From Cirrosporium novae-zelandiae (taxonomy: Eukaryota): a DNA stretch of 64,000 bases. The position numbers and the translations under genes were made by a program. The stretch is from positions 248,001 to 312,000 of the forward strand of contig JAPETS010000033.1 in assembly GCA_026023565.1 (NCBI GenBank), in the 5' to 3' direction. This document shows positions 4,025 through 48,272 of this stretch, in pieces (position 1 is the first letter of the stretch; each line of letters starts with the position of its first letter). Below the pieces are notes generated by a model. It saw nothing but the letters and a program-made list of their open reading frames with translations, ran no database searches and had not been told where the DNA came from.

Positions 4025-5716
4025 TTAATGATATTTGCGACCAGCAGCGGCTCCGTTTGCCCTTAACTTTGCATCCCTACTCTGGCTGGATGAGGCGTCA
4101 AATGATGCGGACCTTAGGGCATTGAAGTTCTGTTCCGCTATCTTGGTTTGATGAAGCTGTAACATGACCGAGAGTGTCAACTTGACCGAATCCACCTCTT
4201 CCATAGCAGCCATTACATCCTTTCTTTTCCGCTGCCACTTCAGTGATCGAACAAGTTGGTGGCCAGGTTTGACTTTGAATCCCTCTAGGACGTACTGCAC
4301 TTCCTCTATTGCCATGTTGCTGTCTTGAAGGGCTTCCCTGCCCAAATTCTGCAGCTCCCCGGTAGGTATTGAGGTACGAATAACTTCAGCGGCTGTTTGA
4401 AGAAGTGCTGAATACTGCATTAGCCTTCTTGAGAGTAGCCGCAATTCCCGGGGTGCGTTGCGTACGCTACGGTAAATATCCATGATAGTGAAAGCGGTTA
4501 TTGCAGCTTGGTCAACTGATTGTATGATGCCGGCCGCATGTCCTAAGCTGTGTACAGCGTCGACCTCCTCAAATTCCAAACGTCTGGGAAACGTCTTATT
4601 GCTGGGAATACGTGATTTTTGAAAACTACTTCCTTGAGGGTCAGATGACTGTGGTTGTCCAGAAATGCCGTCATGGTTTTGATAATGGGCCTCTACAGTC
4701 TCTTCGCTGGGTCCATCTAGGAGGTGTTGGCGAGGCCTACCCACATTCTGGTTTATATATTCTCTTTCTTGCTCGGATAGTTCGTCCAAGTTGAATGAGC
4801 GCAGATATTCATTGATGTCGCCTGCTAGAGTGTTGTGGCTACTCTCCTCCGCTTCAGTCCCTTTCTCGCCCACCCTAGCTTCCTGTTGGCTTGGAAAAGG
4901 TTGCTCTGTCGAGTTGGTAGCAGATTGAAGAACCCGTTCTTCAGGCATTGAATGAGGCTGTGTACTAGATATGTTGATGCTAACGCCATTTGGTAGCGTA
5001 TGAATCCTTCCACCGCTCTGTAACGGTATATCCGGTCTCGCCAAGAGTCGCTCATACACGATATCAGTGAGATCATCAACCCTGTGAAAGATATCAATCC
5101 CACCAATTGGGTTGGGATCCCAATGGAGATAGCCCTGCATTCCATGTGTGCTTTGATATGCCGTTACTCTCGGAGCTAAACTCTGTGCTAGCCCTAGGAG
5201 GGGAGGTCTTGGTTGAGTGTGATTGCCCACAATTGACCTTGATCGTCAATTAGCATAGAACTCTGTAGCAACTATTCCGAACTACTACACTCACAGAATG
5301 CTAGTCTGTATCGCGATTTTGACAAAGTCAAGCTAGGTAGCAAGACTGCTCTTGAACTTGTCAAGATCATCAGCGGCCATGAAAGCCCATTGGACCTTTC
5401 TTGGAGCGCTACGAAAGTACCCGCGTCCAGAACCCTGGCCCATCGATTTCTCATATTGAGCGATAGTCTTTCGGAAGTTCTGGACGAATTCCTTGACGGT
5501 TGTTGAGTGCTTACTGATGCTCTTTCGAAACGACTCTGGAAGATTCGAAAGGTCGAGGCTTTGCAGCTCATTCATGACACAGAGGAAACCCTGATATTGC
5601 TGTTCCGCGAGCTGGAACTGGGATTTTGAGCCGCCTTCATCTTTCGACGACAAAATAACCTTCGAAGTGAACTCCGTAAATAACGCGGCATCTCCTAGCC
5701 CAAAGCCGAAACTCAT
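4025..5716 (-). pseudogene. Protein with two HeLo-like (fungal STAND N-terminal-type) domains; intron 5294-5238; one in-frame TAG at 5335-5333
   Basis: Starts MSFGFGLGDAALF...RKVQWAFM...DLDKFK; after the TAG the frame continues LDFVKIAIQTSIL and splices (GTGAGT...GCTAAT...AAG) in frame into the 401-aa ORF, whose C-terminal part has a second such domain (LGHAAGIIQ...YRSVRNAPREL...RSLKWQRKRKDV...KLTLSVML). Confidence 0.65.
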
Positions 5717-6830: not shown

Positions 6831-9800
6831 TTACTGCAGACTATCGTCTCTCAAAAGGGCACCACCGGGTGAGTCTGCCGAGCCCGTTGACGTGCTATCA
6901 ATTTGCTTTTGAACCCGATGGTTGTTAATAACGTCCTCCAAGATTTTCCTAATCCTCGCCGGCTGGAAGCATCTTTTGATATCCCAGCATCCCAGGCTAT
7001 TGTTAATTTCTTCGTGTACAAGATCCGCTCTCGATTGTAGCTCCTTGCAGCCAGCGAGTTTCATATTGCGGTCGGCATAGGCTTCGGCCGCTCTTTTGAT
7101 CGAATCTTCCCACACAATGTCGCCCTGTGCATGTGCAAATGCTCGCTCCAGGATGAGGATGATGTCGCAGGAGCACCTGATTATCACTTTTGCTGTCGGG
7201 ACTGCTTCGAAAATGCCGCCTACGGCTCCGATAGCTGCACCAGGTCCAAATGTAAAAATGCCGCATAGCGTAGCAAGGCCTAGATTTAGTGTGTTTCGTG
7301 CCAAGGAACTCCACCAATTGATGTTTGACCAAACGATGTTGCGAATAATGGCATCTATAGCCTCAGGGCGAATTTTTTGGAACCCAAAACATCTGAGAGT
7401 TTCTGCACACACCGTAGTGGACATGGAGTATGTAGATATGGAACTTGGTATGGGGCTTGGGCTTATGGCGGCACTAACCGCATGGAAGTAGAGCCTCAGG
7501 GCTTCCGTGATCGCTTCATCAACTTTCAAGTCAACGTCACAACATTGCGCGGCAACACAGAATTGGCGGACTTCGTTATCATCGATGTACTTTAATGTCT
7601 TTCCCAAGAGATCTTTAATCGATGTAGGATCGTCTAGGATATTTGTCAGCACTGGTCAAACTCGCACGTCTGGTATAGTACCTTTTGAAGTGCATACTAT
7701 CGAGCTCGATCTGTGATTTCCAAGAGTTTGGAGCTTTTTGTTGATGCGTTGTTGATGTATTTTAAGCCCCTTGTTGGCTTCTTCCTTTATCCATGACTTT
7801 CGGGCTCTGTCGTCCTCAAAGGACATATTTTCGGCTGCATCTACTGCCTCTGCTCGGTGTAACTTGAGGACCTTGTCTTTCTTTGTCCCAACGATCACCA
7901 CCGGAGTATTGATCGCATACCTTGCAATTGTTTTGAAAATATCCTCGTCCGCCTTTTGTACAAGGCGTGTTTCATTTAGATCAACGCAGAACCTGGTCAA
8001 GAGGTTAGTACTGCTCAATAAATCTCTTGTTAGCTTACCAAATAGCATTTAATTGCTCTTTTGGATCTTTTTGGCCCGAACGGCTTCGGATGAAATTTTG
8101 TAATAGTATGACTTCTCTCCTGCTGCCACTCTCCAGTCCACGAGAATCATGAACCAGAAGACCTGGGTTCATATCTGTTTCGATGGCTTGGTTTATGTCA
8201 TGCTCTCCTCGCTCATTATCAGATTCTGTTGTCTTTGGGGTCTAGTTAGCACTTACGTGATGTAGGGGATAGATATTCGACTAACCAGATCTGGAACCCC
8301 AAAAACTAGGTTGATCAATGTTGATTTGCCTACTCCAGTCTTACCACAGACGAGAATTCGAAAAGACTCGGCTTTATCTTTTTGCAGTACTGAATGTACA
8401 TTCCAAGGCGCTAAGGGCTCCGAGTTTGCAATCTCATTGGTTTGAAAATCCTGCAAGTAGGGATAGTATTCTCGAAGTCTAGAACGAACAAAGTCTTTTC
8501 GCAAGTGCTCGTACGTGTCTAATATGAAGAAAATGGAAGGATGTATGATTGTGCCATTGGAAGCTGAATAAAGTATTAGTGTATTTTAGTCAGGAAAGCG
8601 CATCAAACCTACAAGATTCGCAATAACCCTTTAATTTGGTCATTTTAAACACTTCTCGGCGTTGTTGCCCCCGAAATCCATAGTTTCTTCCACGATTTAA
8701 TTGAATGGTATGAGATGCACCTGACTTTTCAGAGATGGTCTTTCTCAAATTACCATGACGATGTACTGCACGGAGATCATGCATTTCAGCAATGATACCG
8801 TTTTGATATTCAAATTTCCAAACGCCTTTCGATATATCCTTAGGATTGCACTGGGATGATCTATCGGCCTCTTGAAAAGCTAGCTTCCCCTCATTCAAGG
8901 CAACCAAATCAAGTGGATTGGTCATTTTAGATCTTTTGATTGGTTTGAACTCCAGCACAAGACCCGACTTCCTGCTTTCGATAAGCATCCACTGTAAAGG
9001 ATATAGGGAGAGTCCATCATGAGCAACGCCACCTCCAAGGTCTTTATGGGCACCAAAGAACCATGCCTGAATAATCCTATTTGGCGGCTCACTTGATGTG
9101 CTATCTTGAACGGAAACAAGTTCAGGGGAGAAATCAAGTCGATCTTCATGTATGGCTACCGCATGGCGAAAGGTTTCGATGGTATCATTGACGGATATAT
9201 CATAAAGTTTTTTATCGTCATAGGCTCTGACAGTATCAAAAGCACCAACAAATTTGATGCACGGAGGATCTCGAACCCGGAATGTGGAGCTAACACCAAA
9301 GTTAGCTAGAAGGCATACCGACTGCAGAAAGGGATAATAACAAGTGCTCATATATCTACTCAATCTCGTTAACATGGGATGTACAGTTGATTTGTAGAGT
9401 CTTACCGAGCCAGCCCGTTTCTCATCTTTGTCCTGCACCGCTCGATATAATTCAAGAGTCTTTTTATAAGCCTCGTCGAATTTAGAGTCCGTTAGGTGTT
9501 CTGCACGGAGAGCTCCCATGTGATGAAAAATGCCAGCAACGGCCCGAACAATATCTAGAATATTTGTCAACTGGCTTTGTCAAGAAGAAGTTGAAATAGT
9601 CCTTACAAGCACCGCGGCTATATCCGTACAGCCACAGCTCATCATCAGGACCAGTCAAGGTTTGGCAACAATACTATATAGGGTAAGCAATTTCGGACGT
9701 GAATGATCAGCTATAATATTACAGCCCACCTTGGTGATTTCCTTGATTCTGTTTGGAATATCTGTGGCCCAGATGGCGGAGCTGATCCTCTTCAGGCCTT

Positions 9801-12347: not shown

Positions 12348-13530
12348 ATGAACAGTCCAACAAGTTCAATCGATCAGAAAGCCCCAGAGACAGATAACTC
12401 TAGCACACCAGTGTCCATAGAATCACAGCTTCCAGCCGAAGATGCCTTTCCTAAAGGTTTGCAAACTCCCTTTCTCCTCTCACCACATGAAACCCACCGT
12501 TAACAACCAACCATGACGTCTAGCCTCTTTCACGGAGCCCATCACCACCAAAGAAGGCCACACCTTCCCCCAAACCATTGCACACCGCGGGTACAGAGCC
12601 CTCTACCCAGAAAATACCATGGCAGCCTTCAAAGCAGCCGTAGCGGCCGGCGCCCATGCCCTCGAAACCGATATCCACATCTCCTCGGACGACGTCATAG
12701 TAATCTCTCACGACGCAAACCTTAAACGGTGTTTCGGCCAAGACCAGAAAATAAAGGACTGTTCCTGGGCCTACCTCAGCGCACTGCGGACAATCAAACC
12801 GCCCCACGAGCCGATGCCGCGGCTGCTCGACCTCCTTGCCTACCTCGCTGACCCCACCACAAACCAAGCCATCTGGGTGCTTCTCGACATCAAGCCCGAC
12901 AACGACCCAGAAAAAACCATGCGTCTAATTGCCTCGACTATCGCATCCGTCCCCCCCACTACCAACGGCACCACACCCCCCTGGACCTCCCGCATCCTCC
13001 TCGGCCTTTGGACAACCTCCTTCCTCCCCGCAGCGCACGCCCACCTCCCCAACTTCCCAATAACCTACATCGGCTTCAGCCTCCCCTACGCCCGCAACTT
13101 CCTCAGCATCCCCAACGCATCCTTCAACCTCCTCCAAAAATCCCTCGTGGGTCCGTACGGTGCACGCTTCATGCGGGATGCGCGAGCACTAGGTCGCCGC
13201 ATTTTCGTGTGGACCGTGAACGAGGAGGTATGGATGGCGTGGGGGATACGGAAGGGAGTGGGCGGGGTCATCACAGACGAGGTGGAGAAGTTTTTGGATG
13301 TCTGTAAAAGGTGGGAAGATAATGACGGCGCTGGAAATGGAAACATTAAAACGAAGATGACGGCTAGGGACTTTATTTCGGTGCTGTGCTTCCAGCTCGC
13401 AGCTACGGTGTTGGGAATTGTTTTCTGGATCTGGTTCCGCGACGGGAAAGCGGATCGGAGATTCAGGAAGCGGGTTTTGATTGGGCAACCACAATCACAA
13501 CCACAATTGCAGGCGAAGGTGAAGAGTTAG
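12348..13530 (+). CDS. PGC1: Glycerophosphodiester phosphodiesterase (GDPD), PGC1-like, with C-terminal membrane anchor; intron 12457-12523
   Basis: Splicing gives IAHRGYRALYPENTMAAF; ETDIH, HD, LDIK, VWTVN and GVITD motifs; hydrophobic tail FISVLCFQLAATVLGIVFWIWF. Confidence 0.85.
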
Positions 13531-14538
13531 TGAACGGCGAAAAGATTCCCCCCCGTCTCTCTCTTCAAGTGTTTTTTTCAACGGAGTAAAAGGCGCCAGA
13601 AAGGTGACGAACGAACAAAGACACATTCTCATACATACAGAAACGAAAAAAAAAATAATGGGCCAAATAAAAGAGGTGAAAAGGTGAAAAATTCCCCTCT
13701 TATATAAACATAAACATATAAACCATGAGGAGGCGGGAGGTTTTTGATGTCGATATTTGATGACGACTTTACATATGAGCATGCATACATGCACTTAACG
13801 AATAAACGACATATACATCTGATGCACTTACACACTTTGCATACACACTTACCACTCACCCCCCTTCCTACCCCGAGGACGCTATCGATCTAACATGATG
13901 TTATTCAACAAACTCCATATGTCAAATACCCCCTCCCAAAAAACAATATTCGAATAAATCAATAAAACATACATATCCCATAGTATATAATTTATCCCCT
14001 TTTCCATATTTTTTGTTTGTTCACCTACTCCTTTCATATATGTACGTGTGAACCATAACATCTCATCCCTCATCATGTTAATAATGGAGTATTTTTAAAA
14101 ATCATCATCCATCATTGTGTAAATAAAAAACAATGAAAGTAAGAATAGAAAAAACAGTCTTGGGTCTGATCCTGACCCTAACCCGACTTGATGGATCTGA
14201 CTGGACTGGGGATCCAACGCCAATAGCTAACCATCAAAGCATCATCTCCGTTTGACTCCGTTGTCGTTTCGTGTGGTGAAATGGAACATAAATAAAAAAT
14301 ATAAATGTGTGGCTGTGCCTGCACATTTTACCCTCTTCACATCTCGCATGTCGTAATTTATTATTTTAATTATGCCATTCCTTTTCCTTCATCCTCTTTT
14401 TTTTAAGGCATGTTATGTTTGGAATGTTTCGATACCCACCTCACTCTCCCATCAAATTCGTTCAGCGAACACTCCTTCTTTACTAGCTCGTCTGTCCATT
14501 AGGTTCCCTCCTCTCCTTTTTCTTACACCTTTGGGTTA

Positions 14539-27831: not shown

Positions 27832-28350
27832 ATGAAGGCCTTATTATTAGAGCCTACAGAAATTAAGACCGCCCCTCCAACTTGTCAAAGCGAGGATCCT
27901 CTTCCAAAGAGCTCCTGTACCATGGTAGCTATTATCTCGGCCGTCGCTCCTCGTACGTAACGTCAATACAGTGTTAAATTAAATTATTACTGACACGATC
28001 ATCTATCTAATCTAGCCAGCAATGATGAACACCTCGCCCTTCCTTTGAGCACAAATAGCAGCGATAAACACCTTACCCCTTCCTTGAGCGCAAGTGGCAC
28101 TGTTTCGGTTCAAAGCAATCTCAATCAAGCTTCTGAGAATGCTTCCCAGTTCAATGCACCGGTCTCGAAAGACTCTGTCTGCTATTCAGCTTTTCGTGAG
28201 ATCAAAGCTACAGAAAACAGCGCTAAGGGAAGCTCCCTTCAGCTCAATAGCTTTTGTTCAGACGCAAATGGGGTTGCCACCATCATGAACGCCAAGGTCG
28301 CCAACGCCACCAGCCATGTCATACGGCATCCTCCTAGCCAAGGACCTTAG
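27832..28350 (+). CDS. Small protein (about 151 aa), or the surviving 3' end of a decayed gene, with a paired amyloid-like motif; intron 27953-28015
   Basis: GTACGT...CTGAC...TAG intron joins MKALLLEP...AVAP to SNDEHL...; carries NQASENASQFNAPV and NSAKGSSLQLNSFC. Upstream sequence (about 27420-27830) looks coding but is interrupted by stops. Confidence 0.55.
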
Positions 28351-29389: not shown

Positions 29390-30296
29390 TAATAACAATG
29401 GCACTGGGGCCCTCCTAAGCAGCTAGGAGGAGGAGCGTAATTTATGTATCGTTTGTCTGCAAGCATCAGGATGGCCGTAGTGTCTGGTAATGGTGACTTT
29501 TTTCAACACTGAACACTAGTGAATACCCGACACTTGCGGCTACCCTAGCAAGCACAGACCCCTCGCGGGGTATATATACATACTCGAGTAGCCTTGGGCT
29601 AGAAATCTTCATGCTTTTACAACTCATAAATCCTGCCCCAATAGCACTATTTCCCTAATAGGATAATATACTACACTTTTAGAAGTTAAGTCTTATCGAA
29701 CATAACAGAGCTGATATATATATGCACTGTAACATGAGCTGATTAGTCTTTTTTCTAATAAAGGCAAGTGATCTGTAATGCGTTGGCTTTGCATGAAGCT
29801 TGTATAGAAACGAGGCGTAAAATTCACGCCATAAATTAAGACAGAAACGATGAGTAATGCCCTATACTGCCCATCAATGCCGCTCGTTGGTAGAGGTGTC
29901 ATGTAAAGATTATAATACCACAGTCAGGGAAGGGAATAGACCACACCAGACCGGTCTGAAGGTGATTATTGTTGCGGGAACTTTATTATTGCAGCAACCG
30001 TCGTGAACATCCTTACTGCCGATTTGTGCCGTCCCAACATGAGGTTATTATGTTAAAGCGGAATCAGGCATAAAGCTTTTAATACATAATATTGAACCTT
30101 ATCATTAGATCAATAAACCTGTCAGCCTTACTCACCTGGTTATACGTTGTCAGAACAGTTATAACCAAAAAGTATTATATCCGAAAGCCTCATTTCTATC
30201 TTAGTAAATTGCTTTCGTCTTTGGCACATATTCATTATCAATTTGCCCTTTTATTATCCTTCCTCTTCTCGTGCAACTTAAAATATACTAAGATTT

Positions 30297-31268
30297 ATGG
30301 TGAATTCATTGGAATCTAATATAAATAAAAATCTCACTAACAATATATTCTAGTCCGGTCTCGAAGTTCTTGGGGCTGCTTCTGCTGCGTTAGCCTTATT
30401 AGAATCAGCGTTGCGCATTATCGGGCACGTTCGCAAGGCTTATCGACGCCAAAAAAACTTTACAACAGTCCTTGATCGCCACAATCATGAACTTAAGGAC
30501 ATAAAGACCATTATCGCAGTAACTGAACATGAAAAGGCGCTAAGAACAGAAGCTGTTACTTCTGAATTGATTAAAATCAAAGCTATTGGACAGAGGCTGG
30601 TAGATCATCTAAATACTTTGGCACCACAGGATAAAAGAATTATGCGTCAATTTACCGATCAGTTAATAAATGGGTCAAAAAATGAAACCATACTAGCCAA
30701 TGTTATGGATGAACTCTCTCGCGCAAAGTCCAACCTTAGTCTGTATATTCAAGTTGCCAATGTTGGGTTGACATGCACTGTTGAGGGTATCTTCATCGTG
30801 AACGCCATAGCTGTTAGCCGAATCGACAGTCTCGTTCAGCAAATACTTGGTCAAGGACAAGGACTTGAAATTGCTGAATTTCTTAGAGACCGATCTTTTC
30901 AAAGTATGTTTCACAATCTAATATCTTTAAAAAAAAACTGACAATGAATAGATGATAATATAGTGACCCTGACCGACGCCGATATGAAATCTTTCTGTGA
31001 TAGAGTGGCAGCTATTACTAGCGATCTAAACGCTTCTGCAAGCTCTTCAACCGACGCAAACCTCGATACCTCGCGGACCGTTCTGAATAATTCGACGGAA
31101 GGCCAAGCTTTACAGATCAATGGTGCAGTTGGGGAGAAAGGTTGGTGGGAGGTTAAGCACCTCACGATCAAGGACAATAAAGCTATTGAGGAGAGTATAC
31201 AGATTAATCATGGAATCTCTATGGATGTATTCAATCGTTTATTGGGCTCTAGAGCTGTGTCGATCTAG
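30297..31268 (+). CDS. HeLo/SesA-like N-terminal domain plus C-terminal two-repeat amyloid-like motif (about 289 aa); ATG-only first exon, introns 30300-30353 and 30904-30951
   Basis: Spliced start MSGLEVLGAASAALALLESALRIIGHV (hydrophobic first helix), helical domain, S/T linker, then NNSTEGQALQINGAV and DNKAIEESIQINHGI. Both introns are canonical and keep the frame. Confidence 0.8.
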
Positions 31269-31488: not shown

Positions 31489-31692
31489 TCTCCTAAACTG
31501 GCTTCCCATGTCACACGCTTGCAGGGGGGGTAATGCTGAAAGGTTTATTGGTTCAATGATAAGATCTTAAGGCTCAATGGTATTCATCAAAGAACTTGAT
31601 GCCTGACCCAGCCTGGAAATGGTTATCTGACTTATTATAATCCTTACATAACACCCCTACAAGCGTGCGACATTGGAAGCCAGTTTAAGAGA
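31489..31692 (+). mobile_element. MITE of about 204 bp, copy 1 (Tc1/mariner-like, TA target)
   Basis: Terminal inverted repeats of about 35 bp: TCTCCTAAACTGGCTTCCCATGTCACACGCTTGCAG / CTACAAGCGTGCGACATTGGAAGCCAGTTTAAGAGA; preceded by TA. Confidence 0.8.
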
Positions 31693-31894
31693 TGATAGCC
31701 TTTCTGACTTATTAACGCAGGTGGCGTAAGGCTAACAGTTTGATTGTCAAAGAGATTTACGAAGACTTCAAGGATGCGCGTTCGTGTCTCGCTTGCTGCT
31801 TTAAAGGCTCTTGGATAAAAGCCTCACCCAAGTTTTATATATTTGCCCTTGAAATTTTTAGCATTGGCCCCGAAGTTTTTAATATTTTCTATTA

Positions 31895-32090
31895 TCTCCT
31901 AAACTGGTTTTCCATATCATACGCTTGTAGGTGTATCATATAAGAATTATAATAGTTCGGATAATTATTTCCAGGCAGAATCAGCTATCAAGTTTTTTGA
32001 TAAATAAAATTGAGCCTCAAAAATTTATTATTGGACCAATAAACCTTTCAGTATAGACTACAAGCGTGTGACATAAACCAGTTTAGGAGA
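31895..32090 (-). mobile_element. MITE of about 196 bp, copy 2, inverted relative to copy 1
   Basis: TA|TCTCCTAAACTGG...CCAGTTTAGGAGA|TA; its reverse complement aligns with copy 1 over the whole length. Confidence 0.82.
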
Positions 32091-32281: not shown

Positions 32282-32343
32282 ATCATTATCATCATTATCA
32301 TTATTATTATTATTATCATTATTATCATTATTATCATTATCAT
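32282..32343. repeat. (ATC/ATT)n microsatellite
   Basis: Directly visible. Confidence 0.9.
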
Positions 32344-32441: not shown

Positions 32442-33274
32442 TTAGTCGCGTCCTAGGGGGAAGGAATAACTGTGTCCTGGGCGGAAAGGATACCCATATC
32501 TTGGAGAAAAAGGACAACCATATCCTGGTGGATATGGATAGTTATATCCTGGGGGATAGGGATAGTTATATCCTGGGGGATAGGGATATCCTGGGGGATA
32601 GTTATATCCTGGGGGATAGGGATATCCTGGGGGATAGTTATATCCTGGGGGATAGGGATAGTTATGTCCTGGAGGATAGGCATAGCCGGGTCCTGGAGGG
32701 TATGTAGACATGCTCATGTTCTGGGGGATAAGTGTCGGAGGCCTTTCTACCGAGAGGCCGTTCACCTGGGAGCTTTGCCCCCCCGCCACGTTGTTTCGAC
32801 TCTCGATGCTAATAGAAGGTAGAACGGACGTTTGGTCATTGTAAATTATTCCATTGATCTGGGTAGCCGTTCCATAAGCGTGATTACGAGTAGATACAAT
32901 GCTGCCAGCAAAACTTATATTCGGTTGAGGGGTGGTAAATTGCTCATCGTTCACTAGATTGGATATTAGTATTAGTAACGGTTTAGTTTCATAAGATGTA
33001 CTGAAAGTGGTTACATACCAGGCATCTGGCTCGTGGTAGTATCCGGACTCGCAACATCAGGATCTTCGGTAAGGGTCGCTGGAGATTGGAGCTCGGATCG
33101 AGGACTGGAAGTGGCCGTCTCGATTTTCGCGATAGTTTGACCATCGGTATAGGGTACCAGATATTGGGATTTGCTTGAAGAGTCGAGAATAGGTATCTCG
33201 GTTGTCACGGTACTATCATCCTCGGTACGGGGTACTGAAATTTGGAGTTTGTTTGGAGGATCAGGGCTTGGCAT
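32442..33274 (-). CDS. About 255-aa low-complexity protein: S/T/P-rich N-terminus, paired amyloid-like motif, C-terminal YPPG repeats; intron 33018-32954
   Basis: GTATGT...CTAAT...TAG intron joins ...TTTSQMP to VNDEQF... in frame; contains RNHAYGTATQINGII and RNNVAGGQSSQVNGLS, then seven PPGY repeats. Confidence 0.75.
32520..32702 (-). repeat. Coding minisatellite encoding (YPPGY[N/P]) repeats
   Basis: Recurring TATCCTGGGGGATAG units on the plus strand. Confidence 0.9.
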
Positions 33275-33823: not shown

Positions 33824-36237
33824 CAGGGAAGAGAATGAACCAGACCAAATAGACGGTCTAACCACGATCGACTAGACCGACCAGACCTTCATTTCCCAAG
33901 GTCTATTTAGTCTATGTCTATCATGTAGATATATAATATTAGAATGTTTAGGATACTAATAGAATTATACATAGTCAATCCTAGAATAATTGTTAGCTTG
34001 CCCTATTTTGACAGAGGTCTTAGCTGTCTGCATTTTAACTGCTCCCCCTACAATTTTCTATATAACTACCCTGGAATTTTGTATGTGAACCTCCTGTATC
34101 TATAACAGCCTGATATCTCTTTCCTATATAAGTAGTTGTGAAATAGGGGTAAACCATTTTTCCGCGTTCCGCACCAACTAGACTAAACCTCTCCGTCTAT
34201 AGACTAACTGAACATGCTTGCCCAGCATCATCCTCAAAAAATCTTTTCTCATTGACATCGACGGTTCGTTTATCAAGCCATATAGAAACGAATATTTTCT
34301 AAATACTATCACTTCAATTCTTGATAAACTTGTAAAAACTACACGCATTCAAAAATTCTCTGACGAATTTTACATGATGAAAAAGCAGGGATGGCTAGAA
34401 CTGAAGAGGATTTTTCTACAATTATCAGGGCACAATAAGAAGCACTGACAAGCATCTAATCATTAGGGCGTTCTCAATCACGCAGAATTCGTATACCAGT
34501 TCTTCAAAGCCTTGCTAGGAGTTGGGGCACACTCCATGAAGCAAAGTTCTTGAACTATACCGAACCCGCCAAATGGTAGAAGCTGTCTCTACTCTATACG
34601 CCTATATAATCAAGCCTCTTCATCAGTCTTTCAAATGGTACAATAGAAGTCCAGCGGTGAGATTGTTCGCTGCTGTCTACAGCCCTTCGAACTCAATTAC
34701 AAGGATACAGTCGAAAAAATAAGGAAGCGCATCGATGATATGGTCAACCTCACTAGTATAGCAGCGAAAGCAGAAAAGAGAGATATTCATAGGGAAGTAT
34801 GTATGGAACGGACTGAGAATGCTCCTGCGACTACCGATATTATGAATGTATTTCTGAGCGAAATCTCAAAGCAACACAACGACCATCAGAGGCAAAATAT
34901 AATCTTAGAACGATTGATCCACCAATTTGACGAACTTGTGAAAGATGCAATGAGTTGATTATTTTTATTTATTGGCTTTCTTCTCCCGACCTTGCCACAA
35001 GAATAGAACCCTAACAGCTGAATAGTCACCAATTCTATCAATAATAAGGTCGACAATAAGAGATCAGCAGACTAAATTCTAGATCCACAGGTGCAGGATA
35101 GCCCCATAATGTGACAAAGAGGACGAGAGCTTCTCGATCGATTTCTGTTCTTTCTTCGTGGATGGACAGGAGACGCAGTATCTGTCCTAAGCACCTATTA
35201 CTTCCTGCTTGACCTGGGCCATGCCATTGCGATACTCAATCCATGAGCGGGTGAAGCAACTGGAACAATACCTATGGGCTTCATTAGAACTAGCCGACGC
35301 TCAAGTGAATCTGTGGTTAGTCGAGGCACAATTCAATAGGTTGAAAGCCTTAAAGGAAGACAGCGAAAGAGAGGGACCAGACAGACCAGATGGGTCCCCC
35401 TCGGTCTGATCCGTCTATGAAAATTGAAAGCTCGGTCTAGTCGGTTAGACTGACTACACCCTCAAGGAAATAATATTTTTGGAACGAGAGCCTAGTTTTC
35501 TGCAGTCTAAAGGTTCACCGAAATTGCAGCACAGACCCCTTCTTTTCTTTTTTTCAAGTATGTATCAGCTTTCAGAGACAAGATAAGAATTTACCCCAAG
35601 ATTTGAGACCAAAGAAATCTGGCAGCTATCCGTATTGAGGAGCGTTTAATCATTCTTCATCCGGACTATCGCGTTGGTCTGCAAGCTAGGACTGACAATA
35701 TTCGACCGTCGTTGCAAGAGTTAAGAATGGGATTCTTATATATCTAAGCTTTATGTAGTTGCAAAGAATTGGGGCACGTCAATCAGATTCAATTTTTGCA
35801 GTGGAATAAATATTTTATTCATAGATATATGTCGTAACCTGCAGGACCATGGAAGAGGCATGAATCAGACTATTTATTACCTTTAAAGGCCTTCAAATCT
35901 AAAGCCTAGGTACTATAGACATGCGGTAGACACACACCGTCACAAGGGCTTTAAATCTCAACACTAGACTGTCTCAAAAGCAAGATTTCTTTCAGTGAAT
36001 ATCCTCTAAATGTACAGTACTCGGCCATCATCAAATTCCCTACGACTCTACGGGAGAGATTAGAATAATGATTTAGCCAAGCTAAAGAATGGTTGATAAT
36101 ACTGAAGTACTTGATTACTTAACTGGTTATCTGGAATAATTCGTATTTATATAGACCAAATAGACCTTGGACAATCAAGGTCTGGTCGGTCTAAGGTCTA
36201 TAGACCGTCTATTTGGCCCAGTCTATTGCCAACACTG
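33824..36237. mobile_element. Possible non-autonomous TIR element (hAT-like ends) about 2.4 kb long
   Basis: 33824-33920 and 36151-36237 are inverted repeats (AGACCAAATAGACGGTCTA...AGACCGACCAGACCTT...CCAAGGTCTATTT); ends CAGGG.../...CACTG. No target-site duplication found. Confidence 0.5.
34467..34958 (+). pseudogene. Frameshifted fragment resembling the N-terminal helical domain found upstream of NACHT in fungal NLR/STAND proteins
   Basis: Across three frameshifts it reads GVLNHAEFVYQFFKALLGVG / LHEAKF / ELYRTRQMVEAVSTLYAYIIKPLHQSFKWYNRSPAVRLFAAV / LQPFELNYKDTVEKIRKRIDDMVNLTSIAAKAEKRDIH. No P-loop seen downstream. Confidence 0.6.
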
Positions 36238-38194
36238 AGATCTATGGATGGATGGAGAAGATGTATGGAATATCTTTGATCAGGTGGGTGCCCCTTCCTG
36301 ATCTATATATATAGCACCGGGAGCTAGATCGTGTTGGAGATTGACATGTTGAACCGTCGCCGGGTGAAGCTGATGATACATGTCGTAGTCTACCATATAA
36401 TTGGAATTGAGCTAGACACAGCAGTTCTTATAGTTAAACCTTGTTTTTCTAACATCTCCTTCTTCAAATTAAAGGTAGCAAAATCTTAAGAGATAATAAG
36501 GGCAGGGGGTGTTATTGGTACAAGTACCTCCGAAGAGTTATGAGGCTAGGTAACACGGAATGTGTGATTTTTGCGGTAGAAAACACCCGTTAAAGGCCCA
36601 GGAGTAGTATTTTAGATCTTGAATGGGGTTGCCGCAGACTGTAAATGGCCATTCAGAGCACTTGTACGCACGGGTGTGTTAGATGTGGTTCCTCTCGAGA
36701 ATATATGCTCAGCCTCTCCGAATTCTGAACCGTATATGTCGTCTGGACATACTCAAGCATTGTCGTGATAAAGTCCTGAAAACCCTGGCTCTTTACTCTC
36801 TGAGACTTGGTGAAGAACTATTCGATAAGTGATACAGTTGTTTGTATGGTGAATGGAATATCTGAGATATCTTCTACCTAGAAAATGGGGCAGGAGCAGA
36901 GGCTACAAGATCTTTGAGGTCTTTGCGGAAATTTCTAGGCAAGATCTTCAACTTTTCGGACATAGGGCGAGCCTGTTCGGCGTCCTGAACTAGGCCCTAG
37001 GAGTAGACGCGGGGGGGGGGGCTTCTCAAGCTGAAACTTCATCATCTGGCAGTACCTTCTGCGACTGTAGTTCTTGTAACCCACAAAGGCTGCAGTTTCC
37101 TGACACTGACGGTATTATTTCAAGCAAGAAGTTGGAAATTTGCCTCTGAGAGTGGTGCGGCTTGTGTCGCCTGCAAAATAGCTGTGGTATATCGACGTGA
37201 CAACTCAACATGGCATGATCTTGACAATGTTCTTTAGTCCACGGATATGATGTATCTCCAATTCTATGAATCTCACTGCCACCCATATCATCATCAAAAC
37301 TATCCTTTAAACTCAGACCCAGAATCGGACTCGTTCTGTACACCATCCTGTTGATGGAGAGATTCGCAGCAAATTACCTGATCAATCGTCAACCACTTTT
37401 ACTAAAGATTCTAATTATTTCTTCCATCTTTCACCTCATCGTTATAGTTCTTACGCACCGCAATACCTCTCAAATCCTATAGCCCGTTAAGTAGGATTTC
37501 GTTTTCCTTCTTCAAGTTGACTGGTTTTTTGGGATAGTAGTGAGGAATCAAGTTGATTGCCCGTAGTAGATGGTGGATATGATGTCAATCCTGTTACTGT
37601 GAGAGGACACTCCGAGAGGACACTGGGGTTATGTTCATGTCCCATGTATATGATGAGGCAGCAAAATAAAATCTGTCACGACTGCACATGAGATAAACTA
37701 GCAAGTCTGTATCACACGAATCTGAGAACCATCAAGACTGGTTAATCCTTAATAGGTATCTCAAATGAAAGCTGAAATTGTGAAGCCAACTCCCATTCCC
37801 GTTCAAAGCAACCAACAAAAGCTGCATATTGTCGAGGTACTTAGTACCTCCCAGAATTATTCGGGCATATCAACGTAAATAGGGGTGTCAGTTGTAGGTA
37901 TTACTCGAGTATAACCGGTATTTTTAGTTTCGTTACTCTTGCCCTTTTTTATAAAAGCTTCATCTCTGCAAATCAGCGAAATATAGCTCTAGCTAGATTT
38001 AGGGATCCACAGCCCCTTGTTTCTCTGATTAATTCAGGGATCGACCCTAGTTCCTGAAACCCCCAGTGTGCTCGGCCCACACCAAAGTCTTGCCCCACAA
38101 TAATCAACGTCATCATTTCTAACGTGACAATTCGCGACACCAAAACGCGAGGTTCGGATGTCCTGGATACTCGGCGCAGACAAAACTGCTCGTT

Positions 38195-44529: not shown

Positions 44530-47500
44530 ATGGAGGGAGTTCAAGGTGTCGACGTGAGCTGGCTACATCATTCTTGCAAAGGTACGTTGTCGGCTTCAGC
44601 TACCATTTTCAATCCAATTGCCTCCCCGAGTGAAAATCAATCATAGCAAGCGTCGCGAGATTGATCTCTTTATAGACCATACCCAACGACCACACACTTC
44701 TATAGAGGCCGTCCCACGCAGCGACTCTCCATCTCCTCGTCTAGAACCGAACCATAAAGAACCCGCAACATCCCCCACACCTTCTCCCCTTGCGAGTCCG
44801 CCATTAGTTGCTTCTCCTCCAAACGGAGCCGCTTCGCCACCGCCGCAACCGACTGCCAATTCAAGACCCCATCCTATAACTCGTACAAATTCCGATCGAC
44901 CCCCAAATACAAACTCCAAACCAAAGTCCATGTCAAGGAGGAACTCATGGATTTCAAGCATCAGTCAGAGATTCTCATCCACGCCAGCACCTCGCCCGCA
45001 GAACCCAGCCACAGATCATTCAAACAATCAAAAATCACAGACAAAGAATACCTCACCCCCGGACCCGAATGTAAATCCCTTTGGAGCAGCAGTCTCTCCA
45101 GCTGTCCACCAGGAAGAGAAAAAGGAAACCGCTTCTTCCCAACAACAACCTGCAAAATCCCATCCAGGCTTCTTTCAGTCTGCCTTCCGAAGGCTATCCT
45201 CTTCTGGGGTGGGAGGATTAGGTCGATCAGCTAGCACTGGATCGGTTTGCACTCGAAAGGTGATGAATGTCGACCCATACCGTGATCGTTGCAAGGTTGC
45301 AGATTTGGAATCCGCAAAATTACGAAGAGTCGCATTTTGCGTGGACGTGGAAATTGCGAGTACACCGCGGTACCCAGCTGAAGAGGAAGCACCCCAACCT
45401 CCACCTGAACGGCGGCCAAGCCTCGAAGCGCTCGAACATGCCGTAGAGATCAAGAAGAAGAAAAGTGCAGAACAAAAAAGAAAGGGTGAAGGCGAAGCTC
45501 TGAAACACCCCGAAGAGGTTGCCAAGTCAAAAGAACAGAATGGTGTTGTCAAGGGTGAGACGCTGACTAAAGAGGAATCTGAACGAAACCAGAGTCAGGT
45601 TGAGATAGACATGGAAGCCTTGAAAAGGAAGAGGGAAAAGAAGAAGCAGAATGAAGGCGCCCGGAAAGAAAGAAGGGAACGAAGGCGAAGACTAGCAGAA
45701 GCCAATGGAACGGTTCCTTTGGAGTTGACTTTGGAACTGGACAGTAGCAGTTCATCAAGTCCGTCCGGAACGGCTACGCCTAATGCTCAAGATAAGCCAA
45801 CTACAGACCCCTTGAGAATATATCGAAGATGTTGCCAGCTTCGAGAAACCCCAGTACTAAAAAAGATTGTGGAAGAAGTCACCGCCCCATCTTCAGTCCT
45901 CGCAGAAGCACCAGGGACAGTAGGCTGTCTTAACCTCAGTAATTATACCATTAAGCTAAATGACTGTATCACTATGGGCGACTGGCTTGCTGTTGTTCCA
46001 GTAAGGAAACTGATTCTCGATAACTGCGGCCTTACGGATGAAGCCATACGAATTATACTGGCAGCTTTGCTCGCCGTCAAAACTATGGAGCAAGCACGGC
46101 ATAACAAAACTCTAGCAAAGAAAAAGGGAACTGAAAGCGAAGACGCTGAAGAAGAAAAGTTGGGAGTGGTTGAAACCTTGTCACTCAAAAATAACCCAAA
46201 AATTGGCCCTGAAGGTTGGCGATACATTGCCTTTTTCATCTACATGTCGCGAACGCTCAAGGCTATCGACTTGTCCGGGATACCTTTTCCTCAACCTCCT
46301 TCTAATCCTTCGCATGGACCTGGCCATCTCATGCGAACAATGAGCGGACACCAGGTACCCCCTTGTTTGATGTCCATTTTTTCAAAGGCTTTAGGTGAAA
46401 GACTGGCATGGAATCAGCTCGAACAGCTTGTTATAGGAGAATGCAATCTGTCTGCCGAGTGTATTGGAAAAATAGCGGATGGGGCGATACAGTGTAAATT
46501 ACGCAGGCTTGGTCTTGCAAATAATCACTTGGATCATAAAGGGTTGGAACATGTTGCCCGATACGTGGCTGCAGGTTACTGTGAGGGCTTGGATCTAGGT
46601 GGTAATGACATACCGCAAAATTTGCCCACCTTGATAGATGTTTTACATGAAGACAGCTCTCTGGTTGCTCTCAGTCTTGCGGAATGCAACTTATCGCAGG
46701 GTTCGCTTTTACCACTGTTTCCCGCCCTCATGAAGTTACCCAATATTCGTTTCCTCGACCTCTCGCATAATCGAAATCTATTCGCAACACAACCTGATGC
46801 TTTAAGCCTCCTCCGAAAATATCTTCCTCTCATGCCTTCCTTGAAACGAATTCATCTTCACGATGTGGATATGTCCCCCGACCATGCAATTGCGCTTGCA
46901 GAGATATTGCCTGAATGTGGGGGTCTCTGCCATATTGGTCTCCTAGAGAACAAAGCCTTGGTGGCTCTGGCTGATGCTAAAGATGAAGCAAGCCAAGAGG
47001 AAGCATGTGCGCTTTATGCGTCACTGATGGTCGCCGTCAGAGTCTCGAACAGTATCATATGCATTGATATCGAGGTACCCAGTCAGGAATCCAGTGAAAT
47101 TGTCAAGGCTTTGGCCAAACAGTTGGTGGCATACTCGCTACGCAACCTTGAGCGTGCTACTCTTGCTGAAAGTTGGATGAATCTTCCACATGCAGGCGAC
47201 AATTTCCCGCTACCAAAGGAAGTCGAAGTTCCAGATGTCCTACTTCATCTAATTGGTCCTGCTGATGGCACAGATGCTTCCAGCGAAGATGAACTTGCTC
47301 CGGATGATGACTATGTCATTGGAGGCACTGGCGTTGTTAAAGCGCTCGGTATATGCCTAGGATCGGCTCATAACCATAGCAGACGCCCATCTCGGGACGG
47401 TACTCCAACTGGTAGCGGAACCATCACACCGAGAAACCCCTTGTCATCAGTGGCAAGAGGTAGAGCAAGAGATGTGTCGAAAGACTTGCTAGGAAGCGCG

Positions 47501-48272
47501 CGAAAAATCAGAAGTCGGATTCAGATTGCGCTAGTTCGAGAAGACAGAGCAGGAAATGATCTCAACTACAGTGAGTCCAAGCAGTATCTGGCTAGATGAT
47601 TGTTAATCTGAACATGGCCTGTTAGGACGGTTACAATTCCTGGATTCTACGTTGAAACGTATAATCGAAAGATTTGAGGATGAATATCCAGAGACTCGTA
47701 TACCCGATCCGCTTGACGTGCCGGGCATTGCTCCCGACTCCGTCTCCGATCATGGTTCTTCGGAAGATACGTCACTTAACTCTGGAAAGAAGTCCGAAGA
47801 CGCTGCTGGCGGATCCCCAATGTTCCACGAGGATGATGAAGGCATGATTATACATCCTCTTTCCCGTCGTAATTCGGATGTGTCGATTGCCTCACGGGCT
47901 TTGACCACGGAAGAAGGTCAAATGCATCGATTTGGACAGAAGATGCGGCGGGATATACTTCGTCCACAGATGCATGATCATCTTCACGGTACCACCGGGG
48001 ATGAGGAGGATCTCCTTCATATAGCTGCATTACGAGAGAGACTTGAAACTCTTTCGGGAGCGGAGATTCGATCCATGGTTGACAAAGATGGGGTTAAGGG
48101 AGTATTAACGCAGCTCGGTGCGACAGTTGAAGAGTTGATCACTTTGAAGAAAGAAGATCCAGCAGGGCTCGAGAAGTTGAAAGCAGCACAACTAACAGCT
48201 TTATTAAACATTGGCACGTCGAACAAAGCTAATGGGGATGATGAATCGGCTGCCGAGGATATCACGACCTAA
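44530..48272 (+). CDS. MHP1: Mhp1/Gip3-like RNI-type leucine-rich-repeat protein; introns 44582-44675 and 47571-47625
   Basis: Start MEGVQGVDVSWLHHS; RVxF-type motif LRRVAFCVDVEIA; IYRRCCQLRETP; LRRs (LSLKNNPKI, LDLGGNDI, LDLSHN); spliced YRRLQFLDSTLKRIIERFEDEYPE. Confidence 0.8.

Follow-up and report, generated by a model that had tools for sequence, protein, structure and literature searches.

A two-exon gene in the 64,000-nucleotide window of fungal DNA that we analysed (all coordinates are positions in this window) encodes a non-globular protein of ~255 residues which, judged from its sequence, carries two pseudo-repeats of the same motif family as the C-terminus of the adjacent effector. 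The protein ends in a tail with seven PPGY copies, which by its repeat structure is a recently amplified low-complexity appendage derived from a minisatellite. We propose that this lineage-restricted protein may act as a modulator in the amyloid network of the effector, more probably as a buffer, cap or decoy than as a trigger, and we put the probability of this reading at roughly 40%.

Gene structure and coding potential

The gene lies on the minus strand, from an ATG at 33274 to a TAA stop codon at 32444-32442, in one metagenome-assembled fungal genome, where it is unannotated. It is composed as follows:

33019..33274, minus strand: exon 1, beginning with the ATG at 33274 (85 codons plus 1 nt)
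32954..33018, minus strand: phase 1 intron, 65 nt long, with GTATGT, TACTAAT as branch site, and TAG
32442..32953, minus strand: exon 2, encoding a linker, the amyloid-type pseudo-repeats r1 and r2, and the Y/P/G tail up to the stop codon

In type and size, the intron matches the effector intron used in the annotated protein P0003 and resembles the 63-nt intron of a small paralogue described below. Since the first in-frame ATG of the exon 2 reading frame, at 32717, lies past the motif, the motif would be translated only with the intron spliced out. Codon usage in exon 1 scored 0.189 bits/codon in the predicted frame, the best of the six and above the maximum of 0.177 among 2000 null windows. 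The non-repeat part of exon 2 also scored best in the predicted frame (0.103, with a null 99th percentile of 0.038 over 2000 windows). The tail scored -0.011 in the predicted frame versus 0.167 in another one, and the repeat stretch is open in several further frames.

Together with the absence of the gene from protein collections (phmmer gave no self-match), these additional open frames would be compatible with a chance reading frame that matches the motif by accident and corresponds to no gene. We consider this highly improbable given the in-frame intron, the coding scores above the null, the two motif domains at family spacing and the collinear paralogue, both of the latter with the E-values reported below.

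A motif pair shared with the neighbouring effector

The pseudo-repeats and the effector have the following positions:

32841..32906, minus strand: pseudo-repeat r1, in a 22-aa register, core N-H-A-Y-G-T-A-T-Q-I-N-G
32748..32813, minus strand: pseudo-repeat r2, core N-V-A-G-G-Q-S-S-Q-V-N-G
30297..31268, plus strand: effector of 289 aa, exons 30297-30299, 30354-30906 and 30952-31268

The effector, whose 3' end lies 1.2 kb from that of the PPGY-tail gene, has a predicted helical bundle at its N-terminus and the same motif as a pair at its C-terminus. A motif profile built from 23 instances, all from outside the window, was run on the 2023 six-frame reading frames of at least 20 aa in the window. 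It matched three of them, each with two domains: the effector (E 2.9e-18), the small paralogue (7.1e-5) and the PPGY-tail frame (7.7e-5), with the next frame only at E 2.7. The paired motif that the earlier note had described is thus borne out by a profile made from independent sequences, which shows it to be common to this protein and the effector. The spacing between r1 and r2 is 30 residues, compared with 29 in the effector and 31 in the small gene, and all eight conserved motif positions are kept in both pseudo-repeats.

Using class profiles, which assigned 23 of 23 instances correctly in a leave-one-out trial, r1 was found to be nearest to the receptor-side class (r0 21.8 bits versus 7.3 for r1 and 7.2 for r2) and r2 to the r2 class of effectors (18.1 bits versus 6.0 for r0 and 5.5 for r1). 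In alignments with the adjacent effector, both pseudo-repeats scored 27, with 8 of 22 residues identical in each case. Receptor-side motifs at four related loci scored 22-33 against their own neighbouring effectors (6-7 of 22 identical), so that the likeness lies in the same range as that of receptor-effector pairs and supports a motif tie with the effector; as a measure of cognate specificity, such a comparison lacks power, the true neighbour pairs ranking 6th to 10th of 11. A complex prediction for effector residues 222-289 and the motif region scored 0.14 versus a mark of 0.34.

The motif regions gave no Pfam match at E <= 0.01, and none to HET-s_218-289. The HRAM signature comprises G at 19, hydrophobic residues at 5, 8, 10, 16 and 18, and a basic residue at 15 (PMC4518210); the placement of the core Q-[IV]-N-G on the published numbering (the HRAM1-5 signature) is ambiguous.

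Protein architecture

Three repeat modules make up the whole protein, and the middle one is the two-rung motif region. It spans approximately residues 102-154 of 255 and is internal, with ~100 residues flanking it on either side. The earlier note had described a protein with no evident globular domain and with an S/T/P/acidic N-terminus, and both observations held: Pfam returned no family, an AlphaFold2 model of exon 2 reached a pLDDT of only 48 and a pTM of 0.16, showing no more than weak strands over r1, and the 85 N-terminal residues include 13 S, 13 T, 12 P, 8 D and 5 E. The exon 1 product contains about three degenerate 26-aa repeats. Its self-alignment at an offset of 26 scored 49, versus 28.8 +/- 5.7 (mean) for shuffled sequences, 2 of 500 of which reached that value.

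The ESM Atlas gave no usable match for the protein. Its translation, inspected by eye, contains no hydrophobic, membrane-anchor-like segment, and Pfam detected no arrestin fold. A secreted or cell-wall protein was ruled out, the N-terminus not being hydrophobic.

The effector, the small paralogue and the surrounding window

The ESM Atlas neighbours of the effector were PF17111 (HeLo-like N) clusters at 0.94-0.96; its two top clusters (0.97) share no common Pfam family. VIA-align placed it near Rx-CC (Z 11.6), MLKL (Z 11.0) and NRG1 CC-R (Z 10.3), all below the caution level of 13 for helical bundles. The effector had no Pfam match, PF17111 included, at E <= 1 and no Foldseek match in the PDB at E <= 1e-3, and a sequence profile search of the PDB returned a de novo protein as its sole result.

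On the other side of the effector lies the only detectable homologue of the PPGY-tail protein:

27922..28350, plus strand: small paralogue of ~121 aa (exon 1 27922-27952, intron 27953-28015, exon 2 28016-28350)

This paralogue has the motif pair and neither the N-terminal repeats nor the PY tail. It aligns collinearly with the non-repeat part of exon 2 of the PPGY-tail gene (BLASTP E 3e-5, 22 of 78 residues identical), and in both genes the motif exon follows a phase 1 intron and starts with N-D-E. The three motif regions have no DNA repeats in common, which indicates that they are not recent copies of one another.

Among 32 scanned reading frames (of the 50 of at least 130 aa in the window), none had a NACHT or NB-ARC domain, and thus no NLR was found. 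The ~13 kb around the PPGY-tail gene hold few genes, together with decayed fragments, MITE-like inverted repeats and a weak DUF7708 fragment.

Homologues and related loci

A phmmer search of 1.84 billion protein representatives with the PPGY-tail protein gave seven matches at E <= 1e-3, all of low complexity and without the motif (when compared with the motif profile, the best of them reached E 18). A word-index search with exon 2, covering 2199 candidates that were 92-296 aa long, yielded no match at E <= 0.01. Neither the protein representatives nor 17 related effector loci contained an orthologue, and none of these loci encodes a motif protein with a PY tail; when all of their reading frames were compared with the window by tblastn, the effector alone was matched. 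In these searches, the paralogue in the window is thus the sole homologue.

The related loci do place the effector in a context. In one of them (L002), an effector homologue (50% identity) is arranged head-to-head with a receptor-like gene that encodes one motif copy at its start, followed by an NPHP3_N P-loop domain (2e-8) and WD40 repeats (2e-121), which places the effector family in canonical signalling. At nine further loci (L006, L008-L014 and L016), falling into four groups, the effector family is accompanied by a non-NLR protein with a single motif. A conserved domain of ~110 aa, which follows the single motif in related loci, corresponds to no Pfam family and no named homologue; it has no counterpart in the window, where the best match reached E 0.16. 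L008 also encodes a CYSTM protein (PF12734, 1.6e-6) with a Y/P/G/Q-rich N-terminus.

The PPGY tail and its minisatellite

The tail and its repeat core are located as follows:

32445..32717, minus strand: Y/P/G-rich tail of 91 aa (29 P, 23 Y, 14 G)
32559..32660, unstranded: perfect minisatellite core, period 36, 2.8 copies, 100% matches

The seven PPGY copies claimed in the earlier note were counted exactly in the assembly (within 32520-32651, over 44 residues), and their origin in a minisatellite was confirmed by Tandem Repeats Finder, which reported periods of 18 and 36 nt with degenerate flanks. Short-read contigs of the sole DNA run cover the perfect core in pieces of 31-50 nt, and the copy number comes from the assembly alone. 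The perfection of the core points to recent amplification or homogenisation. At the edges, where non-synonymous changes are numerous, the units have degenerated to PPGP, PPGH, SPRY, RPGH and PLGR, and the PPxY motif is gone.

Two other identities for such a tail were considered and rejected. The type-1 binding motif of ALG-2 is PPYP, with YP a few residues on. The tail contains no PPYP, every PP in it preceding G, and it was accordingly set aside as an ALG-2 or penta-EF-hand-binding region of the kind found in annexin A7/A11 and ALIX. A CYSTM protein was discarded because the PPGY-tail protein has no Cys-rich end.

It is doubtful, if still a serious candidate, that the gene is a by-product with no current function, in which the motif exon, once duplicated, picked up a new 5' exon together with a slipping minisatellite, and has been drifting since or is already dead. 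Such an origin would account for an orphan missing from protein collections, for a perfect repeat core with altered edges and for tail codon usage that favours another frame; the gene-poor surroundings with their decayed fragments and inverted repeats likewise suggest that the gene may be drifting. Against this stand a reading frame unbroken over 255 codons with a canonical intron, the intact motif positions in both pseudo-repeats and the codon score of the non-repeat parts above the null. In addition, the paralogue is intact too at only 28% identity, which argues that both copies have been retained for long.

The earlier note had suggested a possible ubiquitin-ligase adaptor. In this reading, the motif would join the effector fibril, the seven PPGY copies would recruit the WW domains of Rsp5/HulA, and the amyloid would be ubiquitinated and so cleared or tuned. 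The array is indeed dense, with seven consensus PPxY motifs in 44 residues. In Smad3, PPGY has been proven to bind WW domains, and the YGXPPXG repeats of PAWP/WBP2NL overlap PY motifs (PMC7140179). In animals, amyloid signalling through RHIM is restrained by ubiquitination, and activated RIPK3 recruits an E3 ligase (PMC13506858). On the other side, PPxY has disappeared from the older units at the edges of this minisatellite array, and comparable tandem PY runs occur in other low-complexity reading frames (e.g. three PPVY copies in one at locus L011). The protein has neither of the two features sought above, an arrestin fold or a membrane anchor. In agreement with the earlier note, which knew of no such partner in described fungal amyloid-signalling systems, none of the amyloid-signalling papers listed by a full-text search mentioned PPxY or Rsp5. 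Known Rsp5/Nedd4 adaptors have one to three PY motifs each.

That note had asked whether homologues keep both motif and tail, and had taken a tail absent from homologues as evidence against its reading. The answer is divided: the sole homologue keeps the motif and is tail-less, the core is 100% identical, the edges are devoid of PPxY, and no orthologue is available to show conservation of the PY motifs. The structural part of that reading (a non-globular protein, a shared motif and a PPxY array) stands, and the support for the Rsp5 function goes no further than the consensus match. Recruitment of Rsp5 by the tail is possible on this basis, and an adaptor role as a whole appears unlikely to us. 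The alternative in the same note, a tail that would act as a condensate-forming nucleator, is equally hypothetical.

Proposed role in the amyloid network of the effector

We infer that the motif pair would form amyloid and co-polymerise with the C-terminal repeats of the effector, by which the protein would enter the effector's amyloid network. Since it has no executioner domain of any kind, its role there would be that of a modulator, more probably a buffer, cap or decoy that holds back accidental templating than a trigger. Contact between full-length HELLF and its motif region in the free prion form causes cell death (10.1101/2020.07.06.188508); by analogy, a copy that is encoded in cis and could nucleate freely would be lethal to its own cell. 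Precedents for restraint exist in animals, namely Pirk and viral RHIM decoy amyloids (PMC13506858). Most likely, the tail would set solubility and valency and, from its place directly after r2, sterically obstruct the growing fibril; a WW-domain ligase may bind to it in addition.

The opposite direction of effect was also weighed. Here the Tyr-rich tail would cluster by condensation or multivalent binding, the r0-like repeats would nucleate the fold, and the effector would be templated, the protein thus replacing an NLR. The frequent pairing of the effector family with non-NLR one-motif proteins at the nine related loci agrees with such a trigger, and the receptor-side class of r1 and the lack of an NLR in the window fit it at least as well as they fit a buffer. 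Nevertheless, proline makes up 32% of the tail, a different input would be required for the tail-less paralogue, and a constitutive nucleator next to its own executioner would be hazardous. Moreover, the HELLF, RHIM and PUASM motifs did not form foci when GFP or RFP was fused to their C-terminal side (PMC9815663), an observation that we also count in favour of the restraint reading. We judge a non-NLR trigger to be rather improbable.

The modulator reading has its own difficulties. The motif pair is internal, whereas it is terminal in all described systems, and the codon usage of the tail scores higher in another frame than in the predicted one.

Comparison with known systems

The closest parallels are HET-S/NWD2 and HELLF/FNT1 of Podospora anserina, in which two pseudo-repeats of ~21 aa likewise form the templated region (PMC4518210, 10.1101/2020.07.06.188508). 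As in those systems, the motif family is also found on a putative HeLo-like executioner next door and, at the related locus with the head-to-head pair, at the N-terminus of a P-loop/WD40 receptor. Unlike their components, the PPGY-tail protein lacks both a HeLo domain and any NLR portion, there is no NLR in the window, and the motif pair has low-complexity regions on both sides.

More than two neighbouring genes with one amyloid motif are also known from the sigma (SESA/SESB/HET-eN) and PP (HELLP/SBP/PNT1) clusters (PMC5485727). The additional member in those clusters is a lipase that serves as a second effector, and they include an NLR; here, in contrast, there are two extra partners, both without an effector domain. 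Non-executioners that carry the amyloid motif of a pathway and modulate its signalling are represented by Drosophila Pirk and the herpesvirus RHIM proteins. These differ (PMC13506858) in being animal or viral, in using the RHIM motif, in having no PPxY array and in not lying beside the executioner.

The tail shares its tetrapeptide with the Smad3 linker, and its Y/G/P repeats overlap PY motifs as in PAWP/WBP2NL (PMC7140179). PY proteins of the Nedd4/Rsp5 pathway carry their motifs, mostly one to three, in otherwise folded or conserved proteins, whereas here there are seven and they are encoded by a minisatellite. Small fungal proteins of the CYSTM type have a similar Y/P/G/Q-rich composition; the PPGY-tail protein differs from them in lacking the Cys-rich membrane module and in having its tail C-terminal to an amyloid motif.

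As far as our literature search reached, the described fungal amyloid-signalling clusters consist of receptors and effectors. A more speculative and, in our estimate, unlikely extension is that the window reveals a class of components that are neither: two paralogues consisting mainly of the motif would flank a putative HeLo-like killer with no NLR, and one of them would have gained a multivalent PPxY/tyrosine tail through which the amyloid state could be linked to ubiquitination of the Rsp5 type, or which could cluster and so nucleate the fold. If true, fungi would have their own equivalent of the control of RHIM necrosomes by ubiquitin and condensates. Should the motif-only proteins be expressed and become part of the fibril, such a pathway would have its first intrinsic modulators known from fungi, comparable to Pirk and the viral RHIM decoys in animals. 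With a PPxY array joined to the motif by nature, the protein would also offer a handle for asking if functional amyloids are kept in check by ubiquitin ligases outside animals as well.

Gene structure and coding potential

The PY gene, which joins an amyloid-type motif pair to a PPGY-repeat tail, was resolved on the minus strand into two exons whose outer boundaries (33274-32442) agree exactly with the earlier note; the product has ~255 residues. A second two-exon gene with the same motif pair, referred to here as the paralogue, lies at 27922-28350 on the plus strand (product ~121 residues).

Features of the PY gene and its paralogue, in window coordinates
33274-33019, minus strand: PY gene exon 1; ATG at 33274, 85 codons plus one base
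33018-32954, minus strand: PY gene intron; 65 nt, with GTATGT, a TACTAAT branch site and TAG
32953-32442, minus strand: PY gene exon 2; ends in TAA at 32444-32442
32906-32841, minus strand: first pseudo-repeat of the PY-gene motif pair (r1)
32813-32748, minus strand: second pseudo-repeat of the PY-gene motif pair (r2)
32559-32660: minisatellite core; central 102 nt, 100% identical at period 36
27922-27952, plus strand: paralogue exon 1
27953-28015, plus strand: paralogue intron; 63 nt, phase-1
28016-28350, plus strand: paralogue exon 2

The exon-2 ORF of the PY gene has no in-frame ATG upstream of the motif, so the motif is translated only via the 33018-32954 splice; this intron has the type and size of the one used by the annotated effector protein. 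Codon usage was scored after training on ten confident window ORFs, with 2000 windows as the null. Exon 1 reached 0.189 bits per codon in the predicted frame, above all null windows (maximum 0.177), and the non-repeat part of exon 2 scored 0.103 against a 99th percentile of 0.038; for both, the predicted frame was the best of six. The tail scored -0.011 in frame versus 0.167 in another frame, so that only its continuity with the motif ORF marks it as coding. The PY gene is a gene with coding potential, and it is highly improbable that the locus is not a gene.

The first 85 residues of the protein (S 13, T 13, P 12, D 8, E 5) are built of roughly three degenerate repeats of 26 residues, with a self-alignment score of 49 versus 28.8 +/- 5.7 for shuffles (2 of 500 reach 49). 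The Pfam scan matched no family, AlphaFold2 gave a pLDDT of 48 and a pTM of 0.16, and the ESM Atlas returned no usable match. Together with the motif pair and repeat array described below, these results bear out the architecture proposed in the earlier note: an S/T/P/acidic N-terminus, a paired motif and seven minisatellite-encoded PPGY copies, with no globular domain.

The motif pair and its relatives in the window

The pseudo-repeats of the PY protein are spaced 30 residues apart. A profile of 23 motif instances, all from related loci or proteins outside the window, was searched against 2023 six-frame window ORFs of at least 20 aa. It matched exon 3 of the effector, the neighbouring putative HeLo-like cell-death gene (E 2.9e-18), ORF 27994-28347 of the paralogue (7.1e-5) and the PY ORF (7.7e-5), each with two domains; the next best ORF had an E of 2.7. 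A regular expression, written after the sites had been seen, found the same six window sites and no others. On sequence similarity, the PY-gene motif belongs to the effector's family as a predicted two-rung motif.

Class profiles of the single receptor-side motif (r0, five instances), effector r1 (nine) and effector r2 (nine) classified 23/23 instances correctly in leave-one-out. The PY-gene r1 was classed as r0 (21.8 bits versus 7.3 and 7.2) and its r2 as r2 (18.1 bits versus 6.0 and 5.5). Compared with the adjacent effector, both PY-gene repeats score 27 with 8/22 identical, a similarity in the range seen between true receptor-side motifs and the effectors beside them (22-33, 6-7/22). True pairs reach no better than ranks 6 to 10 of 11 in this comparison, which therefore has no power to show cognate specificity.

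The paralogue's motif exon is collinear with the non-repeat exon 2 of the PY gene (BLASTP E 3e-5, 22/78 identical). A phase-1 intron precedes the motif exon in both genes and in the effector, and this exon starts with N-D-E in the PY gene and paralogue and N-D-N in the effector. No DNA repeats are common to the three motif regions, which are therefore not recent copies. The paralogue, which does not appear in protein searches and with the PY gene flanks the effector, lacks both the N-terminal repeats and the PY tail and ends 31 ordinary residues after r2. As far as sequence comparison can tell, it is an ancient, tail-less paralogue.

A word-index search with exon 2 of the PY gene found no match among 2199 candidates, and phmmer against 1.84 billion representatives gave seven matches at E <= 1e-3, all low-complexity and none with the motif; the lack of a self-hit shows that the protein collections do not contain the PY gene. 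Among the 17 related loci, no double-motif ORF carries such a tail; eight of these loci (L001, L002, L006, L008, L009, L011, L014, L016) cover 1.2 kb or more of sequence downstream of the effector homologue, the position of the PY gene in the window. Orthologues keeping both motif and PY tail, which the earlier note had looked to, did not emerge from these searches of protein collections and related loci.

The effector and related loci

At 30297-31268 on the plus strand, the effector shares 99% identity, across 184 compared residues, with an annotated hypothetical protein from a metagenome-assembled genome of Cirrosporium novae-zelandiae, an ascomycete of the class Xylobotryomycetes; one metagenome-assembled genome forms the evidence base for the locus. 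Its N-terminal domain, not recognised by Pfam, is predicted to be a helical bundle (pLDDT 67-87 over residues 1-90). ESM Atlas neighbours include PF17111 (HeLo-like N) clusters at 0.94-0.96, and the two top clusters (0.97) have no common Pfam family. Among the top matches of an exhaustive structure comparison were Rx-CC (Z 11.6), MLKL (Z 11.0, two entries) and NRG1 CC-R (Z 10.3), all below the caution level of 13 for helical bundles.

An alignment of effector homologues, used to scan metagenomes, yielded the 17 related loci. In L002, a homologue of 50% identity and a second gene are arranged head-to-head; the second gene starts with one motif copy, followed by an NPHP3_N P-loop region (2e-8) and WD40 repeats (2e-121). 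The effector family therefore takes part in the canonical receptor-effector layout. In nine loci of four groups (L006, L008-L014, L016), a small non-NLR gene directly upstream of the effector homologue opens with one copy of the motif (L006 275-1052; L008 3780-4592, also L009 and L010; L011 8707-9501, also L012-L014; L016 6690-7504). Where the flank was covered, an intron and a conserved domain of ~110 residues follow; the domain has no Pfam family or named homologue, by eye recalls an inactive retropepsin-like fold, and was not found in the window. These products look like non-NLR receptor-side partners. L017 has one further single motif copy on the opposite strand.

No NACHT or NB-ARC match was found in the 32 ORFs scanned of the 50 window ORFs of at least 130 aa. 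The r0-like r1 and the NLR-less locus argue against the PY protein restraining the effector, the role favoured below, and fit a non-NLR trigger at least as well; overall, we consider such a trigger very unlikely.

Other elements were noted in the window. Between effector and PY gene lies a 166-nt inverted repeat (31533-31698 / 31889-32054, 80% complementary) that looks like a MITE-type element, with shorter related pieces at 29863-29917 and 30098-30136. The stretch 33900-38000 is full of stop codons and may be a decayed gene, especially at 34540-34958 (plus strand), where a weak DUF7708 match (E 1.4e-4, below the Pfam cut-off) accompanies overlapping ORFs in two frames. A weak PF17111 match (4025-5245, minus strand, E 1.1e-3) lies ~25 kb away, and a Tle1-like/DUF2235 hydrolase ORF (6831-9579, minus strand, 2.7e-25) stands beside a P-loop (GKTGVGKST) at ~8345; neither has the amyloid motif. 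A 1013-aa open frame (44558-47599, plus strand) matched no Pfam family, with sub-threshold LRR hints only.

The PPGY tail

The 91 residues after the motif pair (P 29, Y 23, G 14) are encoded by a minisatellite of period 18/36 and contain exactly seven PPGY copies, a count as assembled, the contigs of the single DNA run breaking in the perfect repeat; the run is otherwise free of differences from the window. In the edge units, which have accumulated many non-synonymous changes, PPxY is no longer present; they read PPGP, PPGH, SPRY, RPGH and PLGR. The minisatellite is still turning over. A drifting by-product is an unlikely reading of the PY gene. A second simple repeat (32285-32343, period 9, ATTATCATT, 6 copies) lies ~100 nt past the stop codon.

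The earlier note had proposed that the tail could recruit Rsp5. PPGY can be a ligand of a Nedd4-family WW domain, and YGXPPXG repeats overlap PY motifs in PAWP/WBP2NL (PMC7140179); recruitment would thus be chemically plausible. Against a selected adaptor function stand the tail-less paralogue, with no orthologue to compare, and an array with a perfect core and older edge units lacking PPxY. Tandem PY runs also arise in other low-complexity ORFs: the 182 kb of window and loci hold three runs of at least two [PL]PxY, namely the seven copies of the PY tail, three in an L011 repeat unrelated to it, and a pair that is probably due to chance. The L011 run, three tandem PPVY copies, lies in a Y/P-rich low-complexity ORF (2796-2873, plus strand), and L008 has a Y/P-rich low-complexity CYSTM protein (13391-13849, plus strand; PF12734, 1.6e-6). 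Both are near effector homologues, lack the amyloid motif and show the ease with which PPxY-like runs arise; small fungal proteins such as the latter often contain Y/P/G/Q-rich regions. A full-text search found no mention of PPxY or Rsp5 in the amyloid-signalling papers it listed. The earlier proposal is partly supported: its structural part stands, the function it suggested is weakened by the tail-less paralogue, and we regard an Rsp5 adaptor as distinctly unlikely.

Proposed role

We tentatively read the PY protein as an amyloid-network modulator with a low-complexity tail (probability roughly 0.4). Its motif region would co-polymerise with the effector C-terminus, and the favoured outcome would be restraint of the effector as a buffer, cap or decoy, the 32%-proline tail directly after r2 hindering nucleation or stacking. 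Restraint is favoured by analogy with three precedents from the literature. When the HELLF motif region in its free prion form meets full-length HELLF, the result is cell death (10.1101/2020.07.06.188508); a freely nucleating copy encoded next to its own executioner would therefore kill the cell. Foci formation by the HELLF, RHIM and PUASM motifs was blocked by GFP or RFP fused on their C-terminal side (PMC9815663), and the PY tail should act likewise. Pirk and viral RHIM proteins are motif-bearing negative regulators or decoys in animals (PMC13506858).

Comparison with known systems

In its architecture and context, the motif region resembles the HET-s/HELLF class. Its core, Q-[IV]-N-G, did not fit unambiguously onto the HRAM1-5 signature published in PMC4518210, and the Pfam HET-s model did not match the region. 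Described systems have a terminal motif and an adjacent NLR, whereas the PY protein lacks the former and its window the latter. We would class the PY gene as part of a fungal amyloid-signalling variant in which two paralogous proteins without an effector or receptor domain, one of them with a PPxY-rich tail, flank the executioner.
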